NCBI GenBank assembly: GCA_965206645.1
Contig: CBDBKE010000004.1
Span: forward strand, 736,001-800,000
DNA: 64,000 bases
Source: Terriglobia bacterium
GTDB taxonomy: Bacteria; Acidobacteriota; Terriglobia; JAJPHL01; JAPKYU01
Reading direction: 5' to 3'
A program made the translations under genes and the position numbers. Of this stretch, positions 22,315 to 57,750 are shown one piece after another (positions within the stretch are counted from its first letter, which is position 1; each line of letters opens with the position of its first letter). The notes beneath the pieces are model-generated. The model saw only the letters and a program-made list of their open reading frames with translations, did not search any database and was not told the origin of the DNA.

Positions 22315-22342
22315 GATAAACGCTAGCCCGTTAGTAGGGACT
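22315..22342 (+). other. Putative recombination site A (class 1)
   Basis: GATAAACGCTA-GCCCGT-TAGTAGGGACT followed by TATCCGGCA. Confidence 0.7.
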
Positions 22343-22412
22343 TATCCGGCATTCCTGGACATGCGACCCGGCAGGCTGTAGCCTTGGTCAATCGCTTTCC
22401 AGGAGGGCAGCC

Positions 22413-25351
22413 ATGCGCAGGTCCTTGATTCGTAGCGTGGGGCCGGGAATGGCGCTGCTAGCGCTCGGGCTGCTAGCCATCGCGGTGCTGGAGCTGGGTT
22501 CCGACCCTAGCCTTGCCGACAAGCCATACTTCCCAGCAAGAACTCCCGCGGCCAACAAGCCGCAGGTTGTGGAGAACTACGGCAAGCTGCCGCTGAGCTT
22601 TGAAGCCAATCAGGGCCAGACCGACAGCTGGGTGGACTTCCTGTCGCGGGGAAGTGGCTACACGTTGTTCTTGACCCCTACTGAGGCCGTGCTTGCTTTG
22701 CGCAAACCCACTGCGTCTGAGGTTGGCGCTGCGTCTGAGGTTAGCAAGGTTGAGGTGGCAAGGTTGAGAGCAACTCGGACACGGAGGAAGCGGTGCTGCG
22801 CATGAAGTTGGTTGGCGCCAATCCATCGTCTCGGGTATCAGGGCTTGAGGAGCTTCCCGGCAAGAGCAACTACTTCCTGGGAAACGACCCAAAGAAATGG
22901 CGCACCAACGTCCCACATTACGCCAAGATTCAGTACAAGGACGTCTACCCGGGCGTGGACTTGGTTTATTACGGCAACCAGCGGCAGCTGGAGTACGACC
23001 TGATTGTCACCCCCGGAGCCAATCCTGAGGCTATCCAGCTCGCCTTTGAGGGTGAAGATGACCTGGAAATAGATGCCCAAGGCGACCTGGTGCTCGACAG
23101 CGACGGTGGTCAAGTCCGCCTGCACAAGCCGTTTGTCTATCAGCAGGTAGACGGTGTTCGGCAGGAAATCTCCGGGGCCTACGTGCTCAACGGCGGCCGC
23201 CAGGTCAGCTTCGAGGTGGCCGCGCATGATGTCGGCAAGCCTCTCATTATTGATCCTGTGCTGAGCTACTCCACCTACCTCGGCGGCAGTGCCAGCGGCA
23301 CCAACGAGACTGGCTTCGGCATCGCCGTGGACGTCTCCGGTAACGCTTACGTGACAGGGCAGACAGCTTCGACTGACTTCCCGACGGCGAGTCCCCTCCA
23401 GGCCGCTCACGGCGGCGGCTCTGACGACCTCTTCGTAACCAAGCTCAACGCCGCAGGTTCCGCCCTCCTCTACTCCACCTACCTCGGCGGCAGTGGCCGT
23501 GACGAAGGCCTCAGCATCGCGGTGGACGCCGCCGGCAACGCCTATGTGACAGGCTTTACCAGGTCGACCAACTTCCCCACTGCCAGCCCCTTCCAGGCCG
23601 CTCATAGCGGTGGCGTCAATGATGTCTTCGTGACAAAGCTAAATCCCGACGGCTCTGCTCTCGTCTATTCCACCTACCTCGGCGGCACTTCAAGTGAGGA
23701 AGGCACCGGCATAGCGGTAGACGTGACCGGCAACGCCTACGTGATAGGCTCGACGAGATCGGCGAACTTCCCCACGGCGAATCCCTTTCAGGCCACAATT
23801 GGCAGCACCTTCGATAACTTCGTAACGAAGCTGAACGCTGCCGGCTCCGCCCTGGTCTACTCCACCTACCTGGGCGGCACCGACTTTGAAACGGACGCCG
23901 CCATCACCGTAGACTCCTCCGGTAACGCCTACGTGACGGGCACCACCATGTCGACCGACTTCCCCACGAGCTTCGGAGCTTTTGACACAACCTTAGGCAC
24001 AGATGGCAGTGGTAATGGTGGCATCGCCGACGCTTTCGTAGCGAAGTTCAATGCCGCCGGCTCCGCTCTCGTTTACTCCACATACCTTGGGGGCAGCAGC
24101 CTAGACGAAGGCCTCGACATTGCCGTGGACGCCGCCGGCAACGCCTATGTGACAGGCTCTACCAGGTCGACCAACTTCCCCACTGCCAGCCCCTTCCAAG
24201 TAGTTTTTAACGGCCCCATCGACGCATTCGTGACGAAGTTGAATGTTGCCGGCTCCGCCCTGGTCTACTCCACCTACTTGGAAGGTGCTGGGTCTCGCAC
24301 CCGCATCGCAGTAGACGCCTCCGGCAACGCCTACGTGACGGGCATTACCCCCGGGGGCCTCCCCACGGCGAATCCCTTTCAGGCCACTCACGCCGGCTTC
24401 GGCGACGCCTTCGTAATGAAGTTCAATGCTGCCGGCTCCGATCTGATCTACTTGAGCTACCTCGGCGGCAGCAACCAAGATTCAGGCCGTGGCATCGCTG
24501 TGGACTCCCTGGGCAACGCGTACGTGACAGGTACCACCGATTCGACCGACTTCCCGACGGCGAGTCCCCTCCAGGCAGCTCACGGCGGCGGCCAGTTCGA
24601 CGCATTCGTGGCCAAGATCACCATCCCCCCAACCCTGCCAACCAACTCCGTGGTCAACGGCGCCAGCTTCCGGCCGGCCGCGGAGGCGAATTCGGTCATC
24701 GCTCCGGGCGCGATAGTGGCCATTTTCGGGACGGACCTGGCGGGCGGTATCGAGGTAGCAACGGACGTACCACTTCCCACCACGCTGGGAGATACCAGCG
24801 TGACCTTCGATGATATTGCGGCCCCGCTGTTTTTCGTGTCGCCTACGCAGATCAATGCGCAGGTCCCGTTTGAGCTGATGACCGGGACGGGGATGGTCAT
24901 GGTGCAGGTGAGGCGGGGCAGTGAAACGAGCGAGGCGCAGCCGATCGGGATCGCGGCCGTATCGCCGGGCATTTTTACGCTGAACGAGCAGGGCACCGGC
25001 GCCGGGGCAATCCTTCACGCGGAAGACTTCCAGCCGGTGAACGACAGCGCCCCGGCACAGCCGGGCGAGTTCATCCTCATCTTTTGCACTGGGCTCGGTT
25101 CGGTACAGCCCGAAGTCCCATCCGGCGATGTTGCCCCCAGTACGGAGCCTCTGGCGCGAACCGTTACCCTACCAATGGTGAACATCGCTGGCATAGCCGC
25201 CGACGTGGCCTTCTCCGGCCTGGCCCCAGGGTTTGTGGGGCTCTACCAGGTGAACGCGCAGGTGCCGGCGGGTGTCCCGGCGGGTACGCAGGAGGTGGAA
25301 ATCCTCGTTAACAACGTGCCGGGTAACACCGTCACCATCGCCGTGCAGTAG
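22413..25351 (+). CDS. Secreted SBBP beta-propeller repeat protein with Solibacter-type C-terminal domain (frameshift near 22770)
   Basis: AGGAGG RBS; PLSFEANQGQ; repeated YSTYLGGS..D.G.GIAVD..GNAYVTG; C-terminal GFVGLYQVNAQVP. Confidence 0.88.
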
Positions 25352-25411
25352 CCTGCTCCGCCTCGGTCCAAGTCTCTAAGTACAAGACGCTTGCCTCAGA
25401 TTCAGCGGATA

Positions 25412-25439
25412 GGTCCCCACTAGTCGGTTAGCGTCTTCC
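25412..25439 (-). other. Putative recombination site B (class 2)
   Basis: Minus strand GGAAGACGCTA-ACCGAC-TAGTGGGGACC then TATCCGCTGAATCTGAGGCAA. Confidence 0.7.
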
Positions 25440-25465
25440 CGCTCTCTGTTCGTTCTCAAGAAACG

Positions 25466-25495
25466 AAAAGCCGCACCCCTTTGGGGATGCGGCTT
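25466..25495 (-). terminator. Rho-independent terminator downstream of the aldo/keto reductase
   Basis: AAGCCGCACCCC-TTT-GGGGATGCGGCTT hairpin followed by a T run on the minus strand. Confidence 0.6.
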
Positions 25496-25558
25496 CATGA
25501 TCTGACTCAACTTGAAAGCGATCCAGGCAAACAAGCCCGCGCAGGTCCGCAGCTGCCG

Positions 25559-26524
25559 CTAGTCGCCCTGATAGGCGGGGCGCGGCGGCCGGTAGTCCGC
25601 GGTCTTGATATTACGCTTCCAGGTTTCCAGGTGCGGGCCGGCGATCGGCTCGGCGCGCTTGCGCAGCGCGCTCATCTGGGTATCGCCGATGGGCTTGAAC
25701 CGCTGAGCAAAGCGCACGTCGTCTTCGATCTGGCCAACCGTTGTCGCGCCCAAAGTCACGCAGTGGATCGGCAGGCTCAGCACGTAGGCCAGACAGTCGT
25801 TCAGGCTCATGGTCTGCAACAGCTGGGCATTCGCCGTGCTCTTCATGGCCTGGATGCCCAAGCCTTGCTTGATCGCCTCGGGCAGGACTTTGGTCTCGAA
25901 GCTGAGGTAGGAGGGGTCGGCCGGGTGGAGCGGCATCAAGATCGTGTCGAAGTTCTTGTAACTCCGCAGCATCTCCAGGTGCGCAGCGGGGTCGTTGTGG
26001 CCGGTGAATCCGATAAAGCGGCACTTGCCGGCCTTCTTCGCCGCCTCGAACGCCTCGATGGCGCCGCCCGGAGCGAAGATCTTCTGCAAGTCTTCGTCGC
26101 TTTCGACCGAGTGAATCTGCCAGAGATCCACGTAGTCGGTCTTGAGCCGCTTGAGCGAGAGGTGCAGCTCTTCCTCGGCTTCTTTGCGCGTGCGCTTGTT
26201 TGACTTCGTGGTGATGAAGATTTCTTTGCGGAACGGCGGCATGACCGCCCCATAAACTTCTTCCGAGCGGCCATCCCAATAGCCGTGCGCGTTATCGAAG
26301 TAGTTGATGCCCAACTCGTAGGCTCGCAGAGTGACTTGCTTGGCCTCCTCGAACGAGATCAGCGGGAAACGTCCCCCGGCCTGGCCGACGATGGTGAGCT
26401 TTTCGCCGGTTTTGCCAAAGACCCTGGTCGGAATGTCGCCCGCTTCGAGCTTGCTCGCCCGAGCCGAAGTCCCGAGGACGGCGACGCCAGCCAGCGCGCT
26501 ACCCACAAAAGTTCTGCGATTCAT
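25559..26524 (-). CDS. Tat-exported aldo/keto reductase
   Basis: MNRRTFVG twin-arginine signal; GINYFDNAHGY, SLKRLKTDYVDLWQIH, RFIGFTGH. Confidence 0.9.
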   Translation of the reverse strand: MNRRTFVGSALAGVAVLGTSARASKLEAGDIPTRVFGKTGEKLTIVGQAGGRFPLISFEEAKQVTLRAYELGINYFDNAHGYWDGRSEEVYGAVMPPFRKEIFITTKSNKRTRKEAEEELHLSLKRLKTDYVDLWQIHSVESDEDLQKIFAPGGAIEAFEAAKKAGKCRFIGFTGHNDPAAHLEMLRSYKNFDTILMPLHPADPSYLSFETKVLPEAIKQGLGIQAMKSTANAQLLQTMSLNDCLAYVLSLPIHCVTLGATTVGQIEDDVRFAQRFKPIGDTQMSALRKRAEPIAGPHLETWKRNIKTADYRPPRPAYQGD

Positions 26525-26658
26525 AAATCCTCCCGTGAACAAGACTGCATGGGGACCATGCTGCCGCATCTGGCAACGAATTGATTCGTCTGTTTGTCAG
26601 GCGCCATAGCGGCTTCAAGTGTATCAGCCGGAGACAGTTGGCCAAGTGTCGCTGAACA

Positions 26659-26686
26659 AGTCCCCACTAATCGGTTAGCGTTTACT
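26659..26686 (-). other. Putative recombination site C (class 2 variant)
   Basis: Minus strand AGTAAACGCTA-ACCGAT-TAGTGGGGACT. Confidence 0.7.
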
Positions 26687-26721
26687 TATCCACGTCGCAC
26701 CGCCCAGGCAGGCAGAACATT

Positions 26722-26749
26722 GGTAAACGCTAGCCCGTTAGTGTGGACC
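26722..26749 (+). other. Putative recombination site D (class 1)
   Basis: GGTAAACGCTA-GCCCGT-TAGTGTGGACC then TATCCGGCAACGCTGGTGACAAGGCGG. Confidence 0.72.
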
Positions 26750-26780
26750 TATCCGGCAACGCTGGTGACAAGGCGGCAGG

Positions 26781-27266
26781 TCACTTCGGCGGGTTCTCTT
26801 CAACGATGTCCGGCTTGAGCTTGCCGATGATCGTGAGCAGCTCCTCCTTCTCCTTGGCGGGCACCTTGAATTTGTCCAGCGTATCCACCAGGTGGTCCAC
26901 AACGACGTTGAACTCTTTCTCTGTGATGCCCAGCCCTGCGTGAACGGTCTTGGCATCTCGGCTGATGACCTTGCACGGCCCACCCGTGACGTTGCACACA
27001 AGATTGATGTTCTTCTGGATGAACGACTTCCGGGTGTCCGTACCCATCCCCTTGAAAAAAGGTCCGACCTTGGGATCGGTAAAGAGCTTCTCGGCGAAGT
27101 CGTTCACCACCGCTGAGATCGCTCCGTAGCCGCCGAGTCTCTCGTAGAGCGACTTCGTGTGGCTCTCAGCTTTTGTCAAAACCGGTACCGCGAGCAGCAA
27201 GAAAAGCGCCGCCACCGTCACGCCGAAAAAAGCAGAGTTCCTTGATTGTTCTCGAATGGTGTGCAT
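26781..27266 (-). CDS. Group I truncated hemoglobin with signal peptide
   Basis: SLYERLGG, VTGGP, HAGLGITEKEFN; hydrophobic N-terminal signal. Confidence 0.88.
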   Translation of the reverse strand: MHTIREQSRNSAFFGVTVAALFLLLAVPVLTKAESHTKSLYERLGGYGAISAVVNDFAEKLFTDPKVGPFFKGMGTDTRKSFIQKNINLVCNVTGGPCKVISRDAKTVHAGLGITEKEFNVVVDHLVDTLDKFKVPAKEKEELLTIIGKLKPDIVEENPPK

Positions 27267-28522
27267 GTCTTTCTCCTTGTCCAAGATTTCCTTTTTGGCC
27301 GTTTCTGATTTTCCGTTTCCTGCTGGCACGATTGTACGCTATCTACTTCGGTTCTTGCTACTGAAGCGGGTAGGCGCTCAGCACAAAATCCTTGCCTGGA
27401 AAATGGCAGCCAAAGCAGAGCGGGACGCCGTTACCAGCCGCCACCGGATTGGCACCAGAGGTAGTGCTGACGACCTCGTACCAAAACCAACCCTTGCCCC
27501 TGTCACTCTCGGCTTGCGTTTTTACCATGACCGCCCAGCCCTGAAGCTTGCCATTCCCGTCGTACATTTCCTTCACAGAGGCGGAGCCAACGGGGTGGGA
27601 GGTGCTACCCGCCCTCAGCGACGCATCGAGCTTGGGGTCCAAGAACACCCGGACCGGCCAGCCAAACTTCGTGTGCGGGCCACGCGTGGGGTGCGCGGCT
27701 GATTCCTTAGCGAATTGCTTGTATGAGCCGTCCCGCAAGTACTTGAACAGACGGTCTTTGTCGGTCGGAATCAGGCTATCCACACTGGCGCCCTCCGCGG
27801 TGGGCTCCAGGGCGGTAGCCATTGCACCGGACATGGCGCCTGCCATCTTCTTGAATTCCTCCGAGCGGCTGTCCATGGCCCGACCGCTCTTTGCCCCCTT
27901 GGCTGCTCGGAGCACCGGGTAGTATTGTGTGAAGACAAAATCCTCCGCAGCGCTGGCTGCGTGACAGGCGTTGCAAGCCCCCGCGGGAAACTTTTCTGCG
28001 GTGTCGGCCAGCGGATAGGAGTGACCAAAGCTGAAGTAGGCCCAGTTGCCGGGCTCATCCGGGAAGCGTTTGGAGTCCTTGATGGTGGCCTCCAATCCGA
28101 TGAACTCGCCCATGAAATAGCCCTTGCGCTGGTGGCCGCCTTCGAGCCCACACTGACCAACTCCTTGACCAGAATGGTGCCCTGGGGGAATTTCCCTGTC
28201 TTTTTGTAAGCTGCAAAATCGTCGGGATGGATGTATACACCAGGATGCGGTATCGCCCGAGCGGCCGGCCGACCATGGGCGAGAAGCCTCCCTCTTGGGA
28301 GCCATGCTACGCCCCACCCCCAGGCAAGTCAATGCGGCGACGGGGTAGGCTATACGAAGGGGCAAAGTGCTACACCCCCGCCACCCCGAGGAGCGCCACC
28401 CGTCACGGGCGCGTGCGCTCTCGGGACCGGAGACAGGAGCTTCCAAAAGTGCCCCCCCTGGCGCGCCTCCAGGTGTACCCCTGGACTCTAAGGCAAAGGA
28501 TCAAATATACTTTAAGTCCCCC

Positions 28523-28620
28523 ATGGGACGATTGAAGGCGATTTCCCTGTTCAGCGGCTGCGGAGGAAGTGACCTTGCACTCGAACGCGCGGGTTTCAAG
28601 ATCGTTTGGTCAAATGATAT
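28523..28620 (+). pseudogene. 5' fragment of a DNA cytosine-C5 methyltransferase
   Basis: MGRLKAISLFSGCGGSDLALERAGFKIVWSNDI (motif I FxGxGG), cut at the IS end. Confidence 0.8.
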
Positions 28621-30268
28621 CCGGAATTTCCTTTTGGGCCTTCCGGCGATTAAAAATATACACGCATCTGCGTCCCAGCGAGTACAATGTTTTCTCCGAG
28701 AGGACCATCGGCTCCGAGCGTCCCTTTCGGGGTCCCCTAAAACCGTCCAATCAGCATCCAAACCCAGCTTTTTCAGACAACTCTCCATACCTGGGGGATA
28801 GCGGCATCGTTTTCTTGTGTGCCGTAGCCCAGGCTATCCCGACGGGAGTGCCCATCCATCGATCCGCCCCAGCATGCTGGCAAACAGCCGTCGGGTCAAA
28901 TGGCCCTCGGCCAGCAGGAGCCAGTAGTACCGTGAGTGTTTTAGGAGCCGTCCTCCGGTTTTCACCAGCCGCTGCTGGAGGCTCGTCAAGGACCACTTCT
29001 CGATTCTCTGTGGCAGCACTAGCCGTCGCCATAGGTTGCCCAGGTTGTAGGCGATGATCGTCAGCCAAAGCCGTACCTCGTTAGATCGGAACTTGTGGCA
29101 ACTGAGCCGCGTCATCTTCACCGCCTGCTTGCCTTCCTTGATCCACTGTTCTGCGGTGCCGCGCTTGTTATAGAATCGCACCACCGCCCGATTCGGCAGC
29201 GTCAGATTCGTTACAATGAACCCCACTCGCGGGAACAACTCCCCGGAATGATGCTCTACTTTCGCCACCACCCTTCGAGCCGTCTTCCAACTGGCTGCCT
29301 GGTACAAGAACCCCTTGTACTCGACCAGCGGTTTCTTGGTGGGCCTTCCCACGGGGCGTTTCAGTAGCTCTTCGATGTCTCGCTGCAGAATATCGTTGGC
29401 CGGGATGCGAATTGCGTACTTCACACCCCGTTCCTCCAATGCCTCGTACACCTCCGGCTTGGCAAAGGCCGCGTCCGCCCGAAACGCAATCTCTTTTCCC
29501 ATTCTTTCCTGGCGCTCAATCTCGGGTAACAGGAGTTTCTCCCAACCCTCGGCACTGTGCACGTTGCCCGGACGCAGCTGGGCCGCCAGACAGTTGCCGT
29601 CTCGATTGAACAAAAGCAGCGGGTGATAGCAAGTGGACTCGAAGTGCCCGTTGTAGGCGCTCTGTTCCTGCTCCCCGTAGACCGGAATCTCGGTTGAGTC
29701 CATATCCAGCACCGCTCGGTAGTGCCACTGGAAGGCTTCGACCTTTCCGATCAGTTCCCGGTTGATCCGGGCTAACCCGACGAAGTTCTCCACCTTCGCC
29801 AGCATCTCCGTCTCGAAAGTTTGCAACCTGGAGGTCAGCGCCGCGCCTCGTTCCCAAGTCTTCTCTGAACCAATCAGCTGAAAGGTCGGGTCTTGCGACA
29901 GCCGCTCGGCATCATTTACATCCTCGTATCCAGCTAGGCGACTGTAGACCGACTGCCGCAGCAAGTCCGCGAAAGAAAACCGAGCATTGTTTGCCCGCGA
30001 ATCGGTCAAGTGCTCGTCAATGAGTTCGCTGAATCCCAGACGCTCATCCAACTCCCGGACCAGAATCAGTCCACCATTGGAAGTCACCCGTGATCCCTGA
30101 AACCCGACTCGCAGAAATCGGTTGAACGACAGCTGAAATCCCTGTTTTCCGCTCTCACCCATTGAGTTTACGCCTCCGAACGCTCCGATTGATGCTGCAA
30201 CCAGTATCAATATTGACGTTGGAGGTTAGCTGAAGGTTGCCGCTGCGTTTTCAAAAAGGAAATCCGGG
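28621..30268 (-). mobile_element. IS1380-family insertion sequence
   Basis: Inverted repeats CCGGAATTTCCTTTTG (28621) and CAAAAAGGAAATCCGGG (ending 30268). Confidence 0.9.
28834..30162 (-). CDS. IS1380 DDE transposase
   Basis: TSNGGLILVRELDERLG, AGYEDVND, LDMDST, RADAAF, YNKRGTAEQWIKEGK. Confidence 0.93.
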   Translation of the reverse strand: MGESGKQGFQLSFNRFLRVGFQGSRVTSNGGLILVRELDERLGFSELIDEHLTDSRANNARFSFADLLRQSVYSRLAGYEDVNDAERLSQDPTFQLIGSEKTWERGAALTSRLQTFETEMLAKVENFVGLARINRELIGKVEAFQWHYRAVLDMDSTEIPVYGEQEQSAYNGHFESTCYHPLLLFNRDGNCLAAQLRPGNVHSAEGWEKLLLPEIERQERMGKEIAFRADAAFAKPEVYEALEERGVKYAIRIPANDILQRDIEELLKRPVGRPTKKPLVEYKGFLYQAASWKTARRVVAKVEHHSGELFPRVGFIVTNLTLPNRAVVRFYNKRGTAEQWIKEGKQAVKMTRLSCHKFRSNEVRLWLTIIAYNLGNLWRRLVLPQRIEKWSLTSLQQRLVKTGGRLLKHSRYYWLLLAEGHLTRRLFASMLGRIDGWALPSG

Positions 30269-30772
30269 ATACATTGTGGAAATCGGGGAAAGCAGCTTCA
30301 GGTGGATTCATGTCGTTCGGGGTAATCGGCGTACCGATATAGACCCACTCCCGGTAGCCTGTGGGTCGCATGAGTTTACCGTCCGCAGTGAAGCTGGGTT
30401 TCGACTTCCCACCATGCGAACTGGGCGGGGTCGCCGCAAATGTCGTCACAAACAGGGACACGACCATAACCAACGCTACGATGCTGGCGAAGGTGCGAGT
30501 GATACGACGGGACCTAATCGAACGACTCATTCCGTGCCTCCTCTAACCAGGACTTCCGACCTGAGCTTCCTCTTCGCCCGAAGCCTACGGTAGCTGCCCT
30601 GCCGCATCAAGCTCGAATGCGCCAGCCTCTTTTGGAGGCGCCAGGGCCGTTTGGGGCCATTCAGCGGATTTGTCCGGTCCGTTTTCCCGCCTCCAACCTG
30701 CCTCGCTGCCAATGCTTTCTCAGGCGGCAGTAATTCTCTGAAACGGCAAAAGTTGCCTCAGATTCGGCAGAT

Positions 30773-30800
30773 AGGTCCCACTAGTCGGTTAGCGTTTACC
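30773..30800 (-). other. Putative recombination site E (class 2)
   Basis: Minus strand GGTAAACGCTA-ACCGAC-TAGTGGGACCT then ATCTGCCGAATCTGAGGCAA. Confidence 0.72.
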
Positions 30801-30889
30801 TATGCTGCCACGCAGCCCACATGGCCGTAAAACGCCCTTGCCGGAAACTGACCCACTACTCAAAATTAGGAAAGCGGTACCATGAGAGC

Positions 30890-31483: not shown

Positions 31484-31547
31484 GGCATGAGGCTTACGAC
31501 CTATAAGACTGAAGACTGGAGATTGAAAACCTGACCCCTGTCTTGTC

Positions 31548-32552: not shown

Positions 32553-32680
32553 GTTGGTATGCAGTCCCAGACATTCGTCACTTGAATCAGCGACTTTTTC
32601 AAAAGAGTCATCAGAAACCAGGATTAAGAAAATGTATGTGCGCGCCAGGAGATCAGCCGGCGGAGCAGGCATCGCTTGGG

Positions 32681-32860: not shown

Positions 32861-32892
32861 CGGCCAGCTTCCATCAAACGTTTACCGGCAGG

Positions 32893-35953: not shown

Positions 35954-35955
35954 AA

Positions 35956-46783: not shown

Positions 46784-46862
46784 CTTAACTCACCGATTGG
46801 CTCACTGAAATCCCAAGGTCCGAATCCCTTCCCCTGCCCGCCTGCTGCCTACGGCCTGCCGT

Positions 46863-47558: not shown

Positions 47559-47597
47559 CGCCCCTCCGGAAAGCCAACGGCGATTAGCCGTGACCTC

Positions 47598-49663: not shown

Positions 49664-49672
49664 GGCGGCATC

Positions 49673-50572
49673 TTATCCGGAGATGGCAGGTCCGGAACTG
49701 GCAGGTCCGCTCGGGCCGCTGCTGGTGGAACCGGACGGAAGGCAAAACTCCAGGGCCCGCGCAATGTAGTGTTTCAGGTCCCTGCGGTGCACGACCGCAT
49801 CCAGCATGCCGTGCTCCAGCAGGAATTCGCTGCGCTGGAAACCTTCGGGCAACTTCTGGCGAATTGTCTGCTCAATCACGCGAGGCCCGGCAAAGCCGAT
49901 CAAGGCGCCGGGCTCAGCGATGTTCAGGTCGCCCAGCATGGCGAAACTGGCGGTGACGCCGCCGGTGGTGGGGTCGGTGAGCACGCTGATGTAGGGGATA
50001 CGCTCCTCATCGAGGCGGACCAGGACGGCGCTGATCTTGGCCATCTGCATCAGACTCACCACCCCTTCCATCATGCGCGCGCCCCCGGAGGCCGAGACGA
50101 TGATCAGCGGCAGGCGGCTGGCCAGGCTGCGCTCGACGGCGCGAGCAATTTTTTCACCGACCACTGCCCCCATGCTTCCTCCGATGAAACTATATTCCAT
50201 CGAGCAAAGCACCACCCGGCGGTTTTCTAGCGCGCCCTCGGCGGTGATCATGGCGTCCTTGAGCTGGGTTTGTTTCTGCATCTGGGCCAGGCGGTTCCGG
50301 TAGCTTTTCAGGTCCACGAACTTGAGTGGGTCAGTGGAGGCCAGGTTGGCATCGTGCTCCGCCCAATCGCCGTCCAGCAGCAGACGGAGGCGCGTCCTGG
50401 CGTCAACACGAAAATGGAACTCGCAGCGGGGGCAGACATTCCAACCGGCTTCCAGGTCTTTCTTCCAGATAATCTGTCGGCAGTTGCTGCACTTGGTCCA
50501 CAACCCCTCGGTGCGGACGTGCTTCTCGTCCGACGCTTCCAGAGGCTTCTTTTCTCTCTTGAACCAAGCCAT
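49673..50572 (-). CDS. accD: Acetyl-CoA carboxylase carboxyltransferase beta
   Basis: Zn finger CSNC/CPRC, GGSMG, SGGARM, PTTGGVTASFA. Confidence 0.97.
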   Translation of the reverse strand: MAWFKREKKPLEASDEKHVRTEGLWTKCSNCRQIIWKKDLEAGWNVCPRCEFHFRVDARTRLRLLLDGDWAEHDANLASTDPLKFVDLKSYRNRLAQMQKQTQLKDAMITAEGALENRRVVLCSMEYSFIGGSMGAVVGEKIARAVERSLASRLPLIIVSASGGARMMEGVVSLMQMAKISAVLVRLDEERIPYISVLTDPTTGGVTASFAMLGDLNIAEPGALIGFAGPRVIEQTIRQKLPEGFQRSEFLLEHGMLDAVVHRRDLKHYIARALEFCLPSGSTSSGPSGPASSGPAISG

Positions 50573-50619
50573 GCAGTTTTCCGGGCTTGCAGCGGCGCTT
50601 CCTCGTCGACAATCCCTCG

Positions 50620-51150
50620 TTAATAATCAATGCCGCGTTGCGCCAGGATGCCTTTCTGGAACGGGTGCTTGACCTCTTTCATTTCCGTGACCAGGTCAGC
50701 GACCTCGACCAGGCTGGGGTGGGCGTTACGCCCGGTCAGGATGACGTGGACGTCCTCGGGCCGTTGCGCCAGCGCTTCAGCTACTCTTTCGGCAGCGAGC
50801 ATGCCATAGTGAATAGCGTAGTTGATCTCGTCGAAAATCACCAACTGGTACTCACCCGAAAAGACCTTTTGCCTGCCAAGTTCCCAGGCTTTTTCCACCA
50901 GCTCCACATCTGCCGGGTCCGGCTTCTCCGTACCCACCTTGACGAAACCGCGCCCCATGGGCAGCAGCCGGAAGCGCTCTTCGCCCAGCAGCTCGGCTGT
51001 GTCCAGCTCGCCGTAGTGCCAGGACCCTTTCAGGAACTGCACCATCAGCACCTTCAGTCCCTGGCCGATGGCGCGCAAGGCAGTGCCCAGCGCGGCGCTG
51101 GTCTTGCCCTTTCCGTTGCCGGTGTAAATGATCAGCAGCCCCATATCCAA
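50620..51150 (-). CDS. cobO: Cob(I)alamin adenosyltransferase
   Basis: YTGNGKGKT, QFLKG, DEI, LTGR, KHPF. Confidence 0.92.
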   Translation of the reverse strand: MDMGLLIIYTGNGKGKTSAALGTALRAIGQGLKVLMVQFLKGSWHYGELDTAELLGEERFRLLPMGRGFVKVGTEKPDPADVELVEKAWELGRQKVFSGEYQLVIFDEINYAIHYGMLAAERVAEALAQRPEDVHVILTGRNAHPSLVEVADLVTEMKEVKHPFQKGILAQRGIDY

Positions 51151-51173
51151 GAAAACATTCTAGCGGAGGACCG

Positions 51174-51596
51174 TCATCGGGGATAGGGGTGATTGTGGAG
51201 CGTGGCAAAAGCGCGGTAGATCTGCTCCAGCAGGACCACGCGGGCCAACTCGTGGGGCAGGGTGAGGGGGGAAAGCGACAGTAATTCGCACTCGGCGCGC
51301 AGGGCCGGTGGTAGGCCGTCGGCGCCTCCCACCAGGATCACCAACTCGCGCGTGCCGCCGTTGCGTAACCGCTCCAGCCAGCGCGTGAAAGCGGCTGAGT
51401 CCATTCGCCGGCCCGCAGCATCCAAGGCAACCAGCGTGGCCCGCGAGAATTTTTGGTGCACCCGGGCCAAGTCGGCTTCGCGCAGTTCCCGCTGCTCGAA
51501 ATCGCAGAAATGCCCCAGGCGCCGCGCATACTCAGCCGCCGCCTCATTCAGCGCACGGTTGCGCGACCGGCCCACATAAGCAATGCGAATTTTCAT
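51174..51596 (-). CDS. rlmH: 23S rRNA m3Psi1915 methyltransferase
   Basis: GGADG, SLSPLTLPH, LLEQIYRA, HPY. Confidence 0.93.
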   Translation of the reverse strand: MKIRIAYVGRSRNRALNEAAAEYARRLGHFCDFEQRELREADLARVHQKFSRATLVALDAAGRRMDSAAFTRWLERLRNGGTRELVILVGGADGLPPALRAECELLSLSPLTLPHELARVVLLEQIYRAFATLHNHPYPR

Positions 51597-51730
51597 GCCA
51601 GAACTTGGCAGTCAAGACTCTGCATTCGGGCCAAAGCAACCGCCGGCAGAGCAAAGCAACCACCGGAAACTCGCGGCTCGTCACTGCAAGGATGAACCCG
51701 CCGGATAGGTCCAGCCGCCCCAGCGCGATC

Positions 51731-52045
51731 TCACGTTGACCTGCCACGCCTTCTCTTCAACAGTTTCCACACAGCTCGTGCGCCTATGCCCAATCCTGCA
51801 TAGAATAGGAAGTTGATCGGAGTAGAGACAGCTAACATTGCGGCAAGCGGTCCGCCTCCATGTGCAGTTCCGAGCAAGGTGCCCAACAGCACCACCGCGA
51901 TCAGAATTCCCGGGAAACCGAGGAGGGCAATCTGACTGCAAAACGAGTAGCTCCAAGATGGGCCCAACCACATGCACGCGTAAGCCCCTGAGGTAATGCA
52001 ACTGAGCAGCACCGCAACTAAGAGAATCTTCTTATTGGACAGCAT
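51731..52045 (-). CDS. Small orphan membrane protein, visibly more AT-rich
   Basis: 104 aa, about three hydrophobic segments, basic C-terminus. Confidence 0.6.
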   Translation of the reverse strand: MLSNKKILLVAVLLSCITSGAYACMWLGPSWSYSFCSQIALLGFPGILIAVVLLGTLLGTAHGGGPLAAMLAVSTPINFLFYAGLGIGARAVWKLLKRRRGRST

Positions 52046-52183
52046 CTTTTTACCCCATGCCCGCAGCCCCCACGAGTTATTTCAGCTTCATTGCCCGCAT
52101 GGATTCGGACCCACGTAACGACCTGGATCCATTGCGCCCTTCGGGGATTGCGTTATGTCCCTCAAGAATTGATCCGAAAATGC

Positions 52184-53191
52184 TCAGTCCAGGTCGTAGC
52201 GCTTGCGCTTCTTGAGCAGCGGCTTGCGGCTGATACCCAGGATTTGGGCGGCGCGGGACTTGCGGCCGCGGGTGTAATCCAGCACCTCGGCGATGTACTG
52301 CCGCTCAAGTTCAGCTAGCGTCGGCTTGCCTTCGACTGACGACTTGCCTTCGGACAGGTGGGCGGGCAGCTGCTCCAGACCAATCTCCTGGCCAGACGCG
52401 AAGATGAGGGCGCGCTCCAGCAGGTTCTTCAGCTCGCGGACGTTGCCCGGGAAGTCGTATTGCTCGAGCGCCGCGGCGGCCTTGGGCGCAAGACGAACCG
52501 GGCGTCTGCGGTGCACTTCGGCCAGGGCGGCCAGCAGGTGCTCGGCCAGCGGCAGAATATCGCCGCGCCGCTCGCGCAGCGGCGGCAGGACGATGGGGAA
52601 GACGTTCAGCCGAAAGTACAGGTCTTCGCGAAAGTCCCCTCGCCCGATCGCCTGCTCCAGGTCCGCATTGGTCAGCGCGATCAATCGGGCACGAATGCGC
52701 ACGGCGGCGGCTCCCCCCAGCCGCTCGAACTGCTTTTCTTCGATCACACGCAGCAGCTTGGCCTGCATGGGCGTGGTCAACGCCGCCACCTCGTCGAGCA
52801 CAATCGTGCCGCCGCCGGCCAGTTCGAGACGCCCGCGCTTCTGGGCGTCGGCCCCCGTGAAGGCCCCGCGCTCGTGCCCGAACAGTTCGCTTTCGACCAG
52901 CTCGGGCGGCAGGCTGGCGCAGTCAATCTTCAACATCGGCTCATCGTGAGTTGGCCCCAGGTAGTGGATCATCTGGGCCAGCCGGTCCTTGCCGGTGCCG
53001 CTTTCGCCGCGGATCAGGACGGTAGTGGAGGTGAGGGCCACCTTGTGGGCGATCTCGGCAACCTTGCAGGACTGCGGGTCTTGGGCCACCCACAGTTTTA
53101 GCAGGACGGCATCTGCGTCCGTGTGCGCGTTGGTGCCGTGGCCGGCTGACCCCGTTGCTCTTCCCACCGCAGCCTCCTCAGCGCCGCCCAA
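52184..53191 (-). CDS. Sigma-54 enhancer-binding protein (AAA+ and HTH, no clear regulatory domain)
   Basis: GESGTGK, ESELFGHERGAFTGA, FREDLYFRL, PGNVREL; start uncertain. Confidence 0.88.
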   Translation of the reverse strand: MGGAEEAAVGRATGSAGHGTNAHTDADAVLLKLWVAQDPQSCKVAEIAHKVALTSTTVLIRGESGTGKDRLAQMIHYLGPTHDEPMLKIDCASLPPELVESELFGHERGAFTGADAQKRGRLELAGGGTIVLDEVAALTTPMQAKLLRVIEEKQFERLGGAAAVRIRARLIALTNADLEQAIGRGDFREDLYFRLNVFPIVLPPLRERRGDILPLAEHLLAALAEVHRRRPVRLAPKAAAALEQYDFPGNVRELKNLLERALIFASGQEIGLEQLPAHLSEGKSSVEGKPTLAELERQYIAEVLDYTRGRKSRAAQILGISRKPLLKKRKRYDLD

Positions 53192-53242
53192 AGATCAGAG
53201 ACTTCCCGAAGAAACCAAATGAGCCGGTCACGGTGCTGGCCA

Positions 53243-53587
53243 TCAGCCGGCTTCCTCCAAACGAATGCGGGGAGCCATCCGCCAGAGCCGCTCCAGGTCG
53301 TAATACAGGCGGGCTTTAGGAGAGAAAACATGGACCATGAAATCTACATAGTCCATCAGGATCCACTCCGCCTGAGGGTAGCCTTCGATGTGGTAGGGCC
53401 GCAGACCGCCGCGCTTCAAGCAGAGCTCGATTTCTTCGCTGATGGCTTGCACCTGTCGGGAACTGGCGCCAGTGCAGATCAGAAAGTAGTCGGTGAACGA
53501 GCAAACATCCCTCAACTCCAGCGCGACCAGGTCCATGGCTTTCTTGTCCAGTGCCGCGGTAACCGCAGCTTGGAGTTCAGGCTTCAT
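53243..53587 (-). CDS. rsfS: Ribosome silencing factor
   Basis: DKKA, DYFLICTG, WILMDY, YYDLERLW. Confidence 0.93.
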   Translation of the reverse strand: MKPELQAAVTAALDKKAMDLVALELRDVCSFTDYFLICTGASSRQVQAISEEIELCLKRGGLRPYHIEGYPQAEWILMDYVDFMVHVFSPKARLYYDLERLWRMAPRIRLEEAG

Positions 53588-53607
53588 TGCCGGGTTCGTT
53601 GCCGAGT

Positions 53608-54273
53608 TCACTGATAGAGGCGCTGCTCCAGGATGTATTCGGCGACTGCCGGCGGCACCAACCTCAGCAGACTCCCCCCGTCGCGCGCCCGCCGACGCAC
53701 CTCGGTGGCCGAGATTGGTTCCCGGACGTTGGACAGCACCCAGGCCGTAGTCCGGCGCAGGCGAAACTCCTCCACCAGTTCCGGCTCCGGCTCCGGCCCC
53801 CGTGCGGTGCGCCGCTTCCGGAGCAGGTCCTTGGGGAAGACTTTTGCGACCTGCTCCAGGGGACAGCCGGGCCGGCTGACAATCAGAAAATCCGCTCCAT
53901 TGAGCAAGGCGCGCCACTGGTGCCAGCTCGGCAATTCCAGAAAGGCGTCAACGCCAATGAGGAAAAAGAGCCGGTCGGCCGGACCAAGCTGGCGGCGAAA
54001 CCGGCGCACCAGGTGGACCGAATATTGGACTCCACGGCGCGAGGGTGCCTCGGCTAACGAGGGAACAAGACCGCGCTCTCCGGCACAGGCCAGCGCCACC
54101 ATGGCGTAGCGGTGCTCGAAGGCGCTCATGCGATCGTGGGAGCGGTGCGGGGGACGTCCTGCTGGAACAAAATAGATACGGTCCAGACCGAAGCGCTCGC
54201 GAGCGGCCCGAGCGGCCGAAAGGTGGCCACAGTGAACGGGATCAAACGTTCCGCCGAACAGAGCGACGTTCAT
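53608..54273 (-). CDS. nadD: Nicotinate-nucleotide adenylyltransferase
   Basis: FGGTFDPVHCGH, PPH, ISATEVR. Confidence 0.95.
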   Translation of the reverse strand: MNVALFGGTFDPVHCGHLSAARAARERFGLDRIYFVPAGRPPHRSHDRMSAFEHRYAMVALACAGERGLVPSLAEAPSRRGVQYSVHLVRRFRRQLGPADRLFFLIGVDAFLELPSWHQWRALLNGADFLIVSRPGCPLEQVAKVFPKDLLRKRRTARGPEPEPELVEEFRLRRTTAWVLSNVREPISATEVRRRARDGGSLLRLVPPAVAEYILEQRLYQ

Positions 54274-54289
54274 CGGCCGGCGGGCATCC

Positions 54290-55450
<1,161 letters not shown>

Positions 55451-55554
55451 TCAAGTTCCTGATCAAGGAATAGATCTTAAGTTACTGATTAAAAAATAAT
55501 TGCCTGACTTCGTTTCGTAAGAATAGGGGACCCATTTTTCCGCCCAGGCGCCAC

Positions 55555-55824
55555 CTAGGAGGGCGGCTCCGCGACGGGATGAACGTGGACGAATTTGCCA
55601 AACCGGCCTCGCCTCGCGAACTCGACTTGCCCGGAAACCCTGGCGAACAGGGTATGATCCCTGCCCAAGCCCACATTCTCTCCGGCCTTGAAGAGAGTCC
55701 CGCGCTGCCGGACCAGGATGGAACCACCGGAGACCAGTTGGCCACCGAACTTCTTGACCCCCAGCCGCTGTGCCTGCGAATCCCGTCCGTTACGAGAACT
55801 GCCCAGCCCTTTCTTGTGTGCCAT
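55555..55824 (-). CDS. rpmA: 50S ribosomal protein L27
   Basis: [16 protein letters not shown]. Confidence 0.98.
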
Positions 55825-55848
55825 AACTGTGTTTCCTCCTGCTCACTG

Positions 55849-56154
55849 CTAGACCAGGATCTCCTGGATGCGAATGCGGGTCAGCGACTGGCGGTGTCCG
55901 GTCAGCCGCTTGAAGTGCTTCCGCCGCTTGTACTTGAATACCAGCACCTTCGGCGCGCGGACGGTCCCGAGGATCGAAGCTTGCACCCGCGCACTCAAAT
56001 CCTTGCCGGCGCGAAGCGGTTCCCCGTCGGTCGCCACCGCCACAGCAGGCAGCTCAAGGGTCTCGCCCGGCTCGCCCTTAAGTTTCTCTACTTGAAGCAC
56101 GTCTCCGGGCGCGACCCGGTATTGCTTTCCCCCCGTCTGAATGATCGCATACAT
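55849..56154 (-). CDS. rplU: 50S ribosomal protein L21
   Basis: MYAIIQTGGKQY...GHRQ. Confidence 0.97.
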   Translation of the reverse strand: MYAIIQTGGKQYRVAPGDVLQVEKLKGEPGETLELPAVAVATDGEPLRAGKDLSARVQASILGTVRAPKVLVFKYKRRKHFKRLTGHRQSLTRIRIQEILV

Positions 56155-56290
56155 GCTCTGCCCAGCCTCCTGATAAACGAACCTCCAGTATAGCGGAAAA
56201 CCCCCTGGTTTCGCTACGCTCCCGGGCGCGTAGTGGGTCAATTTACGGTAAGGGCGTTATACCGGCCAAGTGGGGCTGCGTGGCAGCATA

Positions 56291-56318
56291 GGTAAACACT
56301 AACCGACGAGCGGAAACC
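56291..56318 (+). other. Putative recombination site F (class 2, degenerate right arm)
   Basis: GGTAAACACTA-ACCGAC-GAGCGGAAACC then TATCTGTCGAATCCGACGCAA. Confidence 0.62.
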
Positions 56319-56543
56319 TATCTGTCGAATCCGACGCAAATCCTTTCGTTCCAGAGAGCTGGGTTAGTGGGGCCCCGATAGCTTGGGGACGCGGCGGCAT
56401 GTTGATCGCGGTGGAAGCCGCCGCCGCTCCCCGCTTCGGAACAAGCGCTGCGGGAGGCAGCGATCCGCGCCGCCATCATTGGCCGCATCCGCCGGGCAAA
56501 ATTCGCCGAAGTGCTGAACTGGCTCCGCCCTTGGTGTGGCTGC

Positions 56544-56804
56544 CTAAACCGCTGCCGGCTCAACAGAACCGCTTGGCGCATGCGGTGGCACAGAAGCGGG
56601 GGATTTTTTCGTGCGGCGCTTTGGAGGTGCAGGCTTGGAGGGAGCTCCTCCGGGCAATAGTTCGACCATCATGAGACTGGTGACGAACTTCTTGATGCCG
56701 TGGAGATCGAAGTCTATGATGGTGCGTTCGGGATTAGCTTCAGTGACTACACCGAGGCCGTACTGTCCATGCTTAAGATACTGAGCTTTCCGGAGAACTT
56801 GCAC
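56544..56804 (-). CDS. Small protein resembling a stand-alone UvrD/PcrA C-terminal Tudor-like domain
   Basis: GTG start after AGGAGG; LKHGQYGLGVV...IDFDLHGIKKF; basic Pro-rich tail. Confidence 0.6.
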   Translation of the reverse strand: MQVLRKAQYLKHGQYGLGVVTEANPERTIIDFDLHGIKKFVTSLMMVELLPGGAPSKPAPPKRRTKKSPASVPPHAPSGSVEPAAV

Positions 56805-57051
56805 GAAACCTCCTTGACCAACCCGGACACCGGCCGGCCTGAGAACAGCCGAATCGTAGCTTAGAGACGCCGGCTGGTGGTTCAGTATTAGGGCCTAGCG
56901 AAGTTGCAGTCAGCGCCCTACGATGGGAATTCCTTACCTTGTAAGTATACCAGGGATGTCTCGAAAACGGGTACTGAAAAAGACGATTTGTTGAGTCCGA
57001 AAGCACGTGGATTCTAGACGTATAGTTTTTCTCCACATCCTTGTCGTACTG

Positions 57052-57060
57052 TGTTATACT
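57052..57060 (+). promoter_or_regulatory. Extended -10 promoter element for the RRM gene
   Basis: TGtTATACT; a divergent TGgTATACT lies on the minus strand at 56944-56952. Confidence 0.4.
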
Positions 57061-57234
57061 GCCACGCGTATTTGAAGAAGTCGGTTTGTCTGAAAGCATT
57101 TACCTCTATCGTTTGCTTCCTGCCCAATTGACTCCATCAAATTCCAGATAGCCGGTCTCCAGCAATGTGCTGACGGCCGGGTACGCGACCGCTCCGCACG
57201 GGCGCAGCGGCAACTTTCAAGGAGACAAAGAGAA

Positions 57235-57534
57235 ATGAAAAGCTTGTATGTCGGCAACATGAGTTTTAACACCACGGAGAGTGATCTGCGGGCTATCTTT
57301 GAGCCGCTCGGAGAGATCACGCGCATCAATGTAATCACGGACCGGGACACAGGCCGGGCTCGTGGCTTCGCTTTTGTTGAGATGTCCAATGACGAGGAAG
57401 CGGCCAAGGCAATTGGGGCAGTGAATGGAAAAGAGCTGGACGGCCGCGCCCTGAACGTGAACGAAGCGCGCCCCAAGACGGAGGGGGGCGGGTCCCGGAA
57501 CAGAAGTGGAGGATATAACCGAGGCGGCTATTAA
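57235..57534 (+). CDS. RRM (RNP-1) RNA-binding protein with Gly-rich tail
   Basis: LYVGNM (RNP2), RGFAFVEM (RNP1), VNEARPK. Confidence 0.95.
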   Translation: MKSLYVGNMSFNTTESDLRAIFEPLGEITRINVITDRDTGRARGFAFVEMSNDEEAAKAIGAVNGKELDGRALNVNEARPKTEGGGSRNRSGGYNRGGY

Positions 57535-57722
57535 CCCGCGTACTAATTTACCGCACGACGCGCCAGGCCAGGGTGCTTGAACGGGTGGACACCCCCATCT
57601 ACTGACGTCGATGGGCGAGTCACCGTAGCAACCCGGCCCGTCGCGCCGGTGGTCTTCCGCTGCCCAATTGACGGAGTCCAAGCGGCAGGAGAACACCGCC
57701 TTGTCACCAGCGATGCCGGATA

Positions 57723-57750
57723 GGTCCACACTAACGGGCTAGCGTTTACA
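57723..57750 (-). other. Putative recombination site G (class 1)
   Basis: Minus strand TGTAAACGCTA-GCCCGT-TAGTGTGGACC then TATCCGGCATCGCTGGTGACAAGGCGG; near-identical to site D. Confidence 0.72.

Follow-up and report, generated by a model that had tools for sequence, protein, structure and literature searches.

Integron cassettes all point in the same direction and are separated by imperfect palindromes of the attC type, and tyrosine-recombinase elements such as Tn916, CTnDOT and the Xer-exploiting phages can cope with overlap or coupling sequences that differ. Two further systems carry genes as modules: mobile insertion cassettes (MICs), described as passenger genes between IS-derived inverted repeats with a related transposase acting in trans (PMC4337579), and the pdif or dif modules described from Acinetobacter plasmids (PMC6449649, PMC13141974, PMC7399989). 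The window analysed here, a stretch of 64,000 nucleotides, contains blocks of genes bounded by short inverted sites, which an earlier note had described as seven 28-base units of two 11-base arms and a 6-base spacer. We show that these blocks are transposons of the MIC kind, which carry cargo but no transposase and have 45-bp IS1-type terminal inverted repeats and 8-bp target duplications. We further propose, with about an even chance of being right, a two-layer mobile system in which the IS1-type ends move whole units and the inner sites act as points where cargo is cut and rejoined.

Seven sites in two spacer classes

With up to 3 mismatches allowed, a search of the window for the 28-mer gave six matches (sites A to E and G; Table 1), compared with a mean of 0.00 after shuffling, with 0 of 100 shuffles reaching six. 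The seventh site, F, is degenerate and differs from an 18-nt core at 3 positions and from the 28-mer at 5. All seven lie where the earlier note had placed them, and its division into two spacer classes with class-specific flanks is borne out throughout. The class 1 spacer GCCCGT occurs in A, D and G, and the class 2 spacer is ACCGAC in B, E and F and ACCGAT in C. Class 1 sites are followed by the inner flank TATCCGGCA, which is longer in D and G and runs to CGCTGGTGACAAGGCGG, while TATCYG..AATCYGA.GCAA follows B, E and F and is degenerate in C. The pairs A/B, D/E and F/G are each inverted, with one site of either class and the right arms facing inward. Joints of the kind formed by C and D number five in G000, and the variant outer left arm of site B moves together with the aldo-keto reductase module.

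Table 1. Sites, transposon ends and cargo in the window
Feature	Position	Strand	Remarks
Target duplication, left copy	22238..22245	.	8 bp, CAAGATTA
O(L), left IS1-type terminal inverted repeat, 8.6-kb element	22246..22290	+	starts GGCAGTGCGCCAGTTTCCGG
Site A, class 1, spacer GCCCGT	22315..22342	+	28-mer match
DUF7948 / SBBP beta-propeller / TIG protein	22413..25351	+	two overlapping ORFs, 22413-22805 and 22793-25351
Site B, class 2	25412..25439	-	28-mer match; outer left arm is variant TCTTCC
Aldo-keto reductase module	25559..26569	-	flanked by two directly repeated class 2 sites
Short joint	26659..26749	.	site C 26659-26686 (-, class 2; 28-mer match), 35-bp spacer and site D
Site D, class 1	26722-26749	+	right part of short joint; 28-mer match
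Globin (bacterial-like), 26781-27329, and cytochrome P460-domain protein, 27358-28446	26781..28446	-	P460 ORF interrupted by IS
Secondary IS1380-family unit	28240..30268	-	transposase ORF 28834-30210
Site E, class 2	30773..30800	-	28-mer match
O(R), right IS1-type terminal inverted repeat, 8.6-kb element	30816..30860	-	
Target duplication, right copy	30861..30868	.	8 bp, CAAAATTA
O(R) terminal repeat, second element	56229..56273	+	
Site F, class 2, right arm degenerate	56291..56318	+	core search
Site G, class 1	57723..57750	-	28-mer match
O(L) terminal repeat, second element	57775..57819	-	

Acidobacteria are abundant soil bacteria whose mobile DNA has been little studied, and the gene-carrying element family is so far known from one genus of them, in which some 50 sites per genome arrange accessory genes as portable blocks. 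The core matches this genome 56 times and its reversed control 0 times; the site family is present in each of the genus's 4 genomes and in 1 of 37 other relatives, there as one lone match. Neighbouring modules are parted by two sites plus either a short stretch (31-42 or 35-50 bp) or about 120 bp, and three direct class 2/class 2 pairs each bound one gene-sized module. No recombinant of class 1 with class 2 occurs among the copies, as expected from the prediction that recombination between the classes is blocked. The apparent hybrid spacers GCCGAC and ACCCGT have flanks all of a single class, and for that reason look like point mutations.

Carrier transposons with IS1-type ends

Conservation extends outward of the sites, up to 45-bp terminal inverted repeats (family consensus GGTAGTGGGTCAGTTTCCGG) on which the earlier note was silent and about 70 bases inside which the sites lie. 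Sites A to E belong to one single transposable unit of 8.6 kb (window 22246-30860) with an 8-bp target duplication, and F and G to a second, inverted element of 1591 bp (window 56229-57819). In the sister species G003 the target of the A-E element is empty, the sequence at locus L044 running without interruption through a single CAAAATTA; the F-G element is missing from the orthologous G003 locus, yet is found at another locus of that genome. Among 12 complete elements the flanking 8-mers agree at 8/8 positions in two, 7/8 in four and 6/8 in one, with no clear match in five. Some blocks are 97% identical between species whose flanking genes share just 84-87% identity.

Pfam searches of 30 cargo ORFs found transposases solely of secondary insertion sequences (IS1380, IS3, IS21-like) and no IS1-type gene; an IS256 copy was also seen. 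A complete IS1-like element is present in the same genome (C4:1910685-1912760), with an inverted repeat that starts GGTAGTGGG and an 8-bp duplication GCCCGCCT. IS1-family ends have GG at the start and TG some bases inward; the termini compare as GGTAGTGGGTCAGTTT in the element family versus GGTAGTGGGCTACTTT in the complete IS1-like element, and the ends of a disrupted IS1-like copy (C2:14856-19501) match at 16/16 positions. For the IS1-like transposases the best NCBIfam family is IS1, with E-values of 2.6e-20 and 1.9e-24 and scores of 73 and 87 bits, below the 100-bit cut-off.

Cargo across the family includes globin/cytochrome P460, aldo-keto reductase, sugar dehydrogenases, kinases and peroxiredoxin. 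The IS1380-family unit is missing from G001 and from contigs of the X22 and X23 runs, in which 28234 is followed directly by 30269; those contigs have an additional G after 22756, in the DUF7948/SBBP/TIG cargo.

Breaks at the spacer edges and how they may be read

Across the four genomes, about 10 independent rearrangement end points coincide with one or other edge of the 6-bp spacer, so that the 11-6-11 unit behaves, as the earlier note had supposed, like a place of DNA breakage and rejoining. Left-arm probes gave 110 matches, 12 of them flagged, in a survey that detects breaks in the first ~10 positions past the left arm and in which the calls of true breaks are our own reading. We take five flagged rows for true breaks, located at spacer positions 4, 4, 5-6, 6 and 6, one of them doubtful (C2 ~504.7 kb); the remaining 7 are single-base indels or variants plus one duplicate. 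Right-arm probes gave 74 matches with 7 flagged: three retain the spacer and right arm and have lost the left arm, two belong to an insertion of 54 bp exactly between spacer and right arm, and the last two are an indel variant and what looks like a chance match. No break inside an arm was found among the flagged rows of the survey. The spacer is thus kept by either arm, as expected of a tyrosine-type recombinase.

In the second layer that we propose, the 28-bp sites would be core sites at which a distinct site-specific reaction breaks and joins DNA in the manner of a tyrosine recombinase, with cleavage at both edges of the spacer. Class 1 would mark the left and class 2 the right junction of a docked cassette, each junction having a putative "carrier" arm GGTAAACGCTA outside and a "cassette" arm TAGTGGGGACC inside, and the unlike spacers would stop the two junctions from recombining in inverted alignment. 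An empty docking site should then read carrier arm, spacer, carrier arm. Such a site is found at C4:2196791, orthologous in G001, where two carrier arms enclose GCCCGT between class 1 and class 2 outer flanks, and it is the predicted empty docking site; among the 4 genomes there was no further one, nor any arm-swapped "circle" junction. A resident class 2 site may also take up a cassette that has a single site. The apparent case is the aldo-keto reductase module flanked by B and C, which is found with the same left boundary at two different sites of this resident kind, one of them in G001.

A cassette system on the chromosome, working with neither Xer nor an integron integrase, is a more tentative reading. 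The IS1-type carrier transposon would supply a docking site that is itself a palindrome, with two carrier arms around 6 bp, and circular cassettes would enter there, the cassette site having palindromic cassette arms and strands being exchanged at one spacer edge only. The left junction would then retain the carrier spacer GCCCGT and the right the cassette spacer GTCGGT (same strand), which would account for there being two spacer classes. As for the recombinase, it would either belong to a kind not yet recognised or have its gene outside the chromosome.

Alternatively, and in our view rather improbably, the sites could be subterminal binding sites of the IS1-family transposase or of an accessory protein, forming bipartite ends with no separate recombination, and the internal copies (B, C-D) would be left over as fossil junctions from elements that had fused or lain in tandem. 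The sites do stand at a fixed distance from the ends (35-50 nt at the left terminus, 41 nt at the right), and the right arm with its flank, TAGTGGGGACCTATCCGG, agrees with the terminal TAGTGGGTCAGTTTCCGG at 13/18 positions in the same orientation (own count). Within G000 the ends are about 80-95% conserved over their full 100-130 bp, not at the site alone, and tandem elements with one common 8-bp spacer are frequent, at 10 loci. The 54-bp split variant, moreover, is present at at least three diverged loci with different cargo, so an intact 11-6-11 geometry was unnecessary for the spread of the split copies. That spread could be due to IS1-type transposition. However, 5 of the 12 complete elements have no sites, some of these with near-perfect target duplications, so the sites are dispensable for IS1-type transposition, and the complete IS1-like element has no such motif inside its ends. 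Sites are also found where terminal repeats are absent, in 87-98-bp joints and beside another repeated flank; with the site-less elements, this makes the 28-bp sites a separable module. The clustering of breaks at the spacer edges, with the spacer retained on either side, also speaks against this reading: cutting at the arm tips by a transposase should yield right arms without a spacer, and none occurs in the 74 right-arm matches.

It is unlikely that the sites have no present function and are conserved merely because all ends descend from a recent ancestor, with cargo turning over by homologous recombination in the conserved ends and, at the level of the transposon, by tandem insertion and later deletion, the break clustering being microhomology or chance. 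At one orthologous locus with different cargo and the same duplication AAAGCGAG the whole element differs, the stretch from site to terminus included, so this swap took place at the level of the transposon. Such a history would also account for the frequent tandem junctions and the uniform conservation of ends within G000, and it is in keeping with the microhomology GTTAG at the spacer edge, between class 1 and reverse-complemented class 2 sites, and with the failure to find an enzyme. Yet the five left-arm breaks fall within 3 of ~11 detectable positions, for which a uniform spread has a probability of about 0.0015 (own calculation), and the opposite spacer edge has three more. When two element lineages are compared, ~25 of the site's 28 positions agree, versus ~65% in the adjoining 40-nt linker (own count), and both spacer classes are retained across species, in each of the four genomes.

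The earlier note had inferred natural recombinase-mediated cassette exchange. As a pdif-like system, with a double like-class exchange carried out by host XerC/XerD or another tyrosine recombinase, we regard this as very unlikely. The 11-6-11 geometry with palindromic inner arm parts is that described for pdif sites (PMC6449649), Xer-like genes are found in G000, G001 and G003, identical inner flanks stand behind unlike outer contexts (for example at D and G), and hybrids between the classes are absent. The comparison with the chromosomal dif nevertheless went against it. The dif candidate TCGTCTGATAAGAGATATTATGTCAACT at C4:400159, near the cumulative GC-skew maximum, is the sole match at up to 4 mismatches, and the site arms agree with it at 5/11 and 3/11 positions (own count). 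Neighbouring modules do not share a single site, whereas those of pdif arrays do and so alternate in orientation, and the four genomes showed no exchange or inversion that had a like-class site at either end. The enzyme of the proposed second layer is probably not XerCD acting as at dif. No recombinase gene was found consistently near the sites: the genus-restricted families of 390 and 399 aa that were checked adjoin tRNA genes, like island integrases; a recombinase near one G003 cassette lacks an orthologue in both G000 and G001; and 0 of 12 matches to the integron integrase (IntI) profile TIGR02249 pass its 265-bit cut-off (best 86.9 bits). Finally, an operator of a dimeric transcription factor controlling the cargo genes is hardly credible: the dyad symmetry GGT..CTA-N6-TAG..ACC and the closeness of sites to gene starts in some cassettes would suit one, but cargo genes lie in either orientation relative to the sites, the sites are homology boundaries and break points, and a block is always bounded by two of them whatever its gene content.

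The proposed two-layer system among known mobile elements

Like MICs, the elements have no transposase, IS-type (here IS1-type) ends, target duplications and varied cargo, with related IS copies in the same genome. Unlike MICs, their ends are 100-130 bp long with a second, inner 28-bp inverted repeat in two spacer classes, a carrier can hold several cassettes, and tandem carriers share one 8-bp spacer. Even if the inner sites do not recombine, bipartite ends of this length and the replacement of whole elements at the same site are unusual among IS1 relatives.

With pdif modules the two-layer system shares 28-bp sites of two 11-bp arms and a 6-bp centre with palindromic inner arms, as well as gene modules between inversely oriented sites and module arrays. 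It differs in that the arms are dissimilar to the host dif candidate, the elements lie on contigs of 0.38-2.2 Mb inside IS1-type transposons, adjacent modules are parted by more than one site and some are flanked by direct class 2 pairs, and the two fixed spacer classes are tied to left and right. The 87-98-bp joints are imperfect palindromes of two inverted simple sites, comparable in form with the attC sites of integrons, and single-site cassettes appear to have entered a site already in place, as integron cassettes do; an exchange confined to one edge would fit the unlike spacers of the two junctions. Unlike integrons, there is no integrase above the cut-off and no attI/Pc platform, arrays are short and dispersed, and cassettes face both ways. 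Should the inner sites recombine, this would be a third natural cassette-exchange design alongside integrons and pdif modules, and the first seen within transposase-less IS-ended carriers.

As in Tn916, CTnDOT and the Xer-exploiting phages, left and right junctions have different 6-bp sequences between inverted arms; here, unlike there, the two 6-mers are constant in all copies and the element encodes no integrase. If the proposal holds, such a fixed incompatible spacer pair would parallel in nature the heterospecific site pairs used in engineering.

The 28-bp sites and their distribution

The earlier note had claimed seven copies of an 11-6-11 site in two spacer classes. A search of the window with the 28-mer, leaving the 6-bp spacer free and allowing up to 3 mismatches, returned six of them (A-E and G); the seventh, F, is real but degenerate, differing from the 18-nt core at 3 positions and from the 28-mer at 5. 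Inspection of the sites bore out the claimed spacers (GCCCGT in class 1; ACCGAC or ACCGAT in class 2), inner flanks and inward-facing right arms, and both classes are present in each of the four genomes of the genus, namely the source genome (G000) and G001-G003. The 28-mer pattern was absent from 100 dinucleotide-preserving shuffles of the window, and the 18-nt core has 56 copies in the 4.4-Mb source genome (up to 2 mismatches), 28 per strand, compared to 0 for a reversed control. When up to 1 mismatch is allowed, a 20-nt pattern has 46, 30, 8 and 30 matches in the four genomes; outside the genus, 37 genomes from the same family, order and class contributed a single match, in one of them. Species-representative genomes yielded 8 stretches with the pattern, all from two Terriglobia bacterium MAG records, and a metagenome scan yielded 6, five of them without arms and flanks and one ending at a contig edge. 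The site family is carried by four genomes only, one of them 62% complete, and the comparisons with G001-G003 cover selected regions.

Coordinates of sites, junctions, flanks and terminus pairs (plain numbers are window positions; C1-C4, contigs of G000; L numbers, fetched loci)
Feature	Location	Remark
Class 1 sites A, D, G	22315+, 26722+, 57723-	
Class 2 sites B, C, E	25412-, 26659-, 30773-	
Class 2 site F	56291-56318+	
Target duplication of A-E element	CAAGATTA at 22238-22245; CAAAATTA at 30861-30868	flanks of A-E element
True breaks after left arm	G001 L064:4835; G000 C4:1947353; G001 L062:5782; G001 L047; G000 C2 ~504.7 kb	last doubtful
54-bp insert in class 2 sites	G000 C2:100733, C3:194417, C4:2091862; G001 L073, L060	C3:194417 has duplicate C3:902074
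GGGTCCTGACACCTG flank	G000 C2:147959, C2:364511, C2:443819, C3:310373, C4:83109, C4:2114863	and others
Doublets	G000 C2:529745-529896, C2:95749, C1:360629; G001 L059:9871-10020, L064:9954-10156, L065:8000-8152	
Tail-to-head terminus pairs	G000 C2:436222-436269, C2:477999-478046, C2:522179-522226, C3:302461-302508	same 8 bp, CCCGCCAG; six more loci

Carrier transposons and their separation from the sites

Outward of both site classes, conservation extends to a common terminus, GGTAGTGGGTCAGTTTCCGG, with which a 45-bp inverted repeat begins. In an element the class 1 site lies 35-50 nt from the left terminus and the inverted class 2 site 41 nt from the right one, with the cargo in between. The 8-mers flanking 12 complete terminus pairs agree at 8/8 positions in two, 7/8 in four and 6/8 in one, with no clear match in five; directly beside the 28-bp sites, no target duplication was found in 16 site pairs. 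The A-E block is flanked by a target duplication, and in the sister species G003 this locus is uninterrupted, with one copy of CAAAATTA, so 22246-30860 is one 8615-bp insertion, which is also found in G001 and G002. The F-G block (56229-57819) is missing at the orthologous G003 locus, and an 89% identical copy lies elsewhere in that genome. A complete IS in the source genome (C4:1910685-1912760) has inverted repeats beginning GGTAGTGGG and an 8-bp duplication, GCCCGCCT; the best NCBIfam match of its transposase is IS1, with a score below the cut-off, and the ends of a disrupted IS1-like copy match at 16/16. Judged by these likenesses the element termini are IS1-type, and the blocks are IS1-type carrier transposons. 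We rejected IS256 as the mobilising transposase, as the Mutator-type gene in C4:428150-430435, the one element that combines the family's ends with such a gene, is a passenger copy of a 6-copy IS256 with unrelated inverted repeats.

At 10 loci two elements lie tail to head with one 8-bp spacer between them (long joints). The shared octamer, CCCGCCAG, resembles GCCCGCCT of the complete IS1-like IS, which could point to a preferred target or to insertion beside a resident element.

The 28-bp sites are a layer separate from these carriers. They are absent from five of the 12 complete elements, and one more has a class 2 site alone. There are also sites that lack termini. Five short joints in the source genome, among them C-D of the window, consist of an inverted class 1 site, 31-42 bp and a class 2 site; some terminus-less sites adjoin a different repeated flank, and others stand as directly repeated class 2 pairs with one gene between them, three of which are found in the same genome, B-C with its aldo-keto reductase being one. 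We rejected short joints as deletion derivatives of long ones, the alignment showing no homology. The repeated flank, ~80 nt with core GGGTCCTGACACCTG, precedes class 2 sites lacking an IS1-type terminus and is perhaps the end of another carrier type. There is also a recurrent doublet of a class 1 site and, 95-150 nt further on, a degenerate right terminus with a class 2 site in the same orientation.

Junctions at the spacer and possible exchange of cassettes

We searched the source genome and the fetched parts of G001-G003 with a probe made of the outer linker and the left (carrier) arm. Twelve of its 110 matches were flagged as not running on into a normal site; five we read as true breaks, at spacer positions 4, 4, 5-6, 6 and 6, these calls being our own reading of the flagged rows, and the remaining seven comprise one duplicate and otherwise single-base indels or variants. 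The survey sees roughly the first ten positions only, and five of five breaks within three positions has P ~0.0015 under a uniform spread over that detectable range (own calculation). A second probe, the right (cassette) arm with its inner flank, gave 74 matches with 7 flagged. Three of these lose the left arm and retain spacer and right arm (G003 L126, G001 L064:17828, G001 L070), two come from a family in which 54 extra bp lie precisely between the spacer and the right arm, and the last two are an indel variant and a chance-like match. The 54-bp insert, seen in class 2 sites, holds two small hairpins, and its loci are diverged with differing cargo. In G001 and G003 the aldo-keto reductase module abuts unrelated DNA on its left, exactly at the spacer. 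At C4:2196791 a left arm, GCCCGT and an inverted left arm stand together, with outer flanks of class 1 on one side and class 2 on the other, an arrangement conserved in G001. Altogether some ten independent junctions fall at one or other edge of the spacer, which is kept with either partner.

At C2:777120-778525 the source genome and its G001 orthologue share the duplication AAAGCGAG and flanks ~95% identical around unrelated cargo, and the 40 nt between class 2 site and terminus are only ~65% alike; this replacement is one of the whole element, which tandem insertion beside a resident element followed by deletion would yield. The aldo-keto reductase module is cassette-level evidence: its copy at a short-joint class 2 site (G000, G003 and G001 L043) and that at a terminus-adjacent one (G001 L047) are 94.5% identical, and a variant left arm moves together with it. 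Class 1 x class 2 recombinants were not seen, sites with GCCGAC or ACCCGT spacers having both flanks of one class. Four public sequencing runs, present as short contigs that end at the repeats, do not bear on excision: apparent junctions, for instance 25404 to 30777 and 22355 to 26766, have 30-base sides at 90% likeness and may stem from paralogous copies. A scan of high-identity pairs for homology end points had 27 qualifying pairs, too few for use.

With moderate confidence we take the 28-bp unit to be the core site of a tyrosine-type recombination, at which cassettes would dock and fuse, with class 1 sites as the left and class 2 sites as the right junctions. Circle-type junctions (a site with two cassette arms) were found in none of the 4 genomes. 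The reading is weakened because no enzyme was found, there is one empty site only, the split variant persists, the ends are uniformly conserved and the right arm resembles the terminus. The last three of these points also favour the main rival, that the sites are subterminal binding sites of the transposase. However, none of the 74 right-arm matches is a right arm without its spacer, which counts against a transposase cutting at the arm tip because such cutting would leave junctions of that kind, and we regard this explanation as possible at best. That the sites are passive relics, with homologous recombination at work, seems unlikely to us. Strict Xer-driven exchange is improbable. The unique canonical dif candidate, TCGTCTGATAAGAGATATTATGTCAACT (C4:400159-400186, ~80 kb from the contig's cumulative GC-skew maximum), is matched by the site arms at 5/11 and 3/11 positions. 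An operator function for the site is scarcely credible.

The search for an enzyme of the favoured core-site recombination gave 36 tyrosine-recombinase matches in the source genome and only 12 in G001; those examined are all truncated, species-specific or tRNA-adjacent island integrases. Genes near sites in G000 are truncated integrase remnants, a G003 gene lying 1.3 kb from a cassette lacks orthologues in both G000 and G001, the genus-restricted 390-aa and 399/385-aa families adjoin tRNA genes, and the 391/415-aa family has no intact member in G003. A 596-aa integrase adjoins a truncated terminus in G001. Integron integrases gave no match above cut-off, and the 3 serine-recombinase matches lie away from sites. 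At C4:495500-504500 (L134) a tRNA-Val gene stands between two paralogous integrase genes, of 399 and 385 aa, within a 2.2-kb inverted duplication, 93% complementary.

Cargo and known systems

The cargo is diverse, its genes encoding among others a DUF7948/SBBP protein, aldo-keto reductase, globin, cytochrome P460, glucose/sorbosone dehydrogenase, planctomycete-type cytochrome proteins, a Ser/Thr kinase, an outer-membrane barrel, DUF1552/DUF1592 proteins, a trypsin-like protease, rhodanese, MerB and peroxiredoxin. Cargo blocks also hold secondary IS insertions. For instance, an IS1380-family unit (28240-30268) splits the cytochrome P460 gene; it is missing from G001, and contigs of two public runs (X22 and X23) run from 28234 straight on to 30269 without it. 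The DUF7948/SBBP gene (22413-25351) is present as two overlapping ORFs, 22413-22805 and 22793-25351; because contigs of two public runs have an extra G after 22756, this copy may be frameshifted or reflect an assembly error. Left of the flanking gene lies a 1.3-kb multi-copy element (18786-20120), of which G003 has at least 10 copies, 91% identical; the G001 locus lacks it. The stretch spanning aldo-keto reductase, joint and globin (25434-27854) is 97% identical to G003 C2:1868595-1871015, whereas identity between the two genomes is only 84-87% in the chromosomal flanks of the element, which suggests a recent transfer between species. No Rfam family was found in 20000-60000, nor a consensus fold of the class 2 inner flank in 12 copies.

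We found no paper on ISMhu11, and no description of the site family in the literature listed on Acidobacteria mobile elements and cassettes and on IS1 reviews. Integron attC sites are one of three close known kinds, and the family fails the integron-integrase test. From pdif modules, with site anatomy as given in PMC6449649, it differs in two defining features. Mobile insertion cassettes, as defined in PMC4337579, are matched by elements of this family in the testable features. On these three comparisons we class the site family with neither the pdif nor the integron systems, its elements having the testable features of mobile insertion cassettes.
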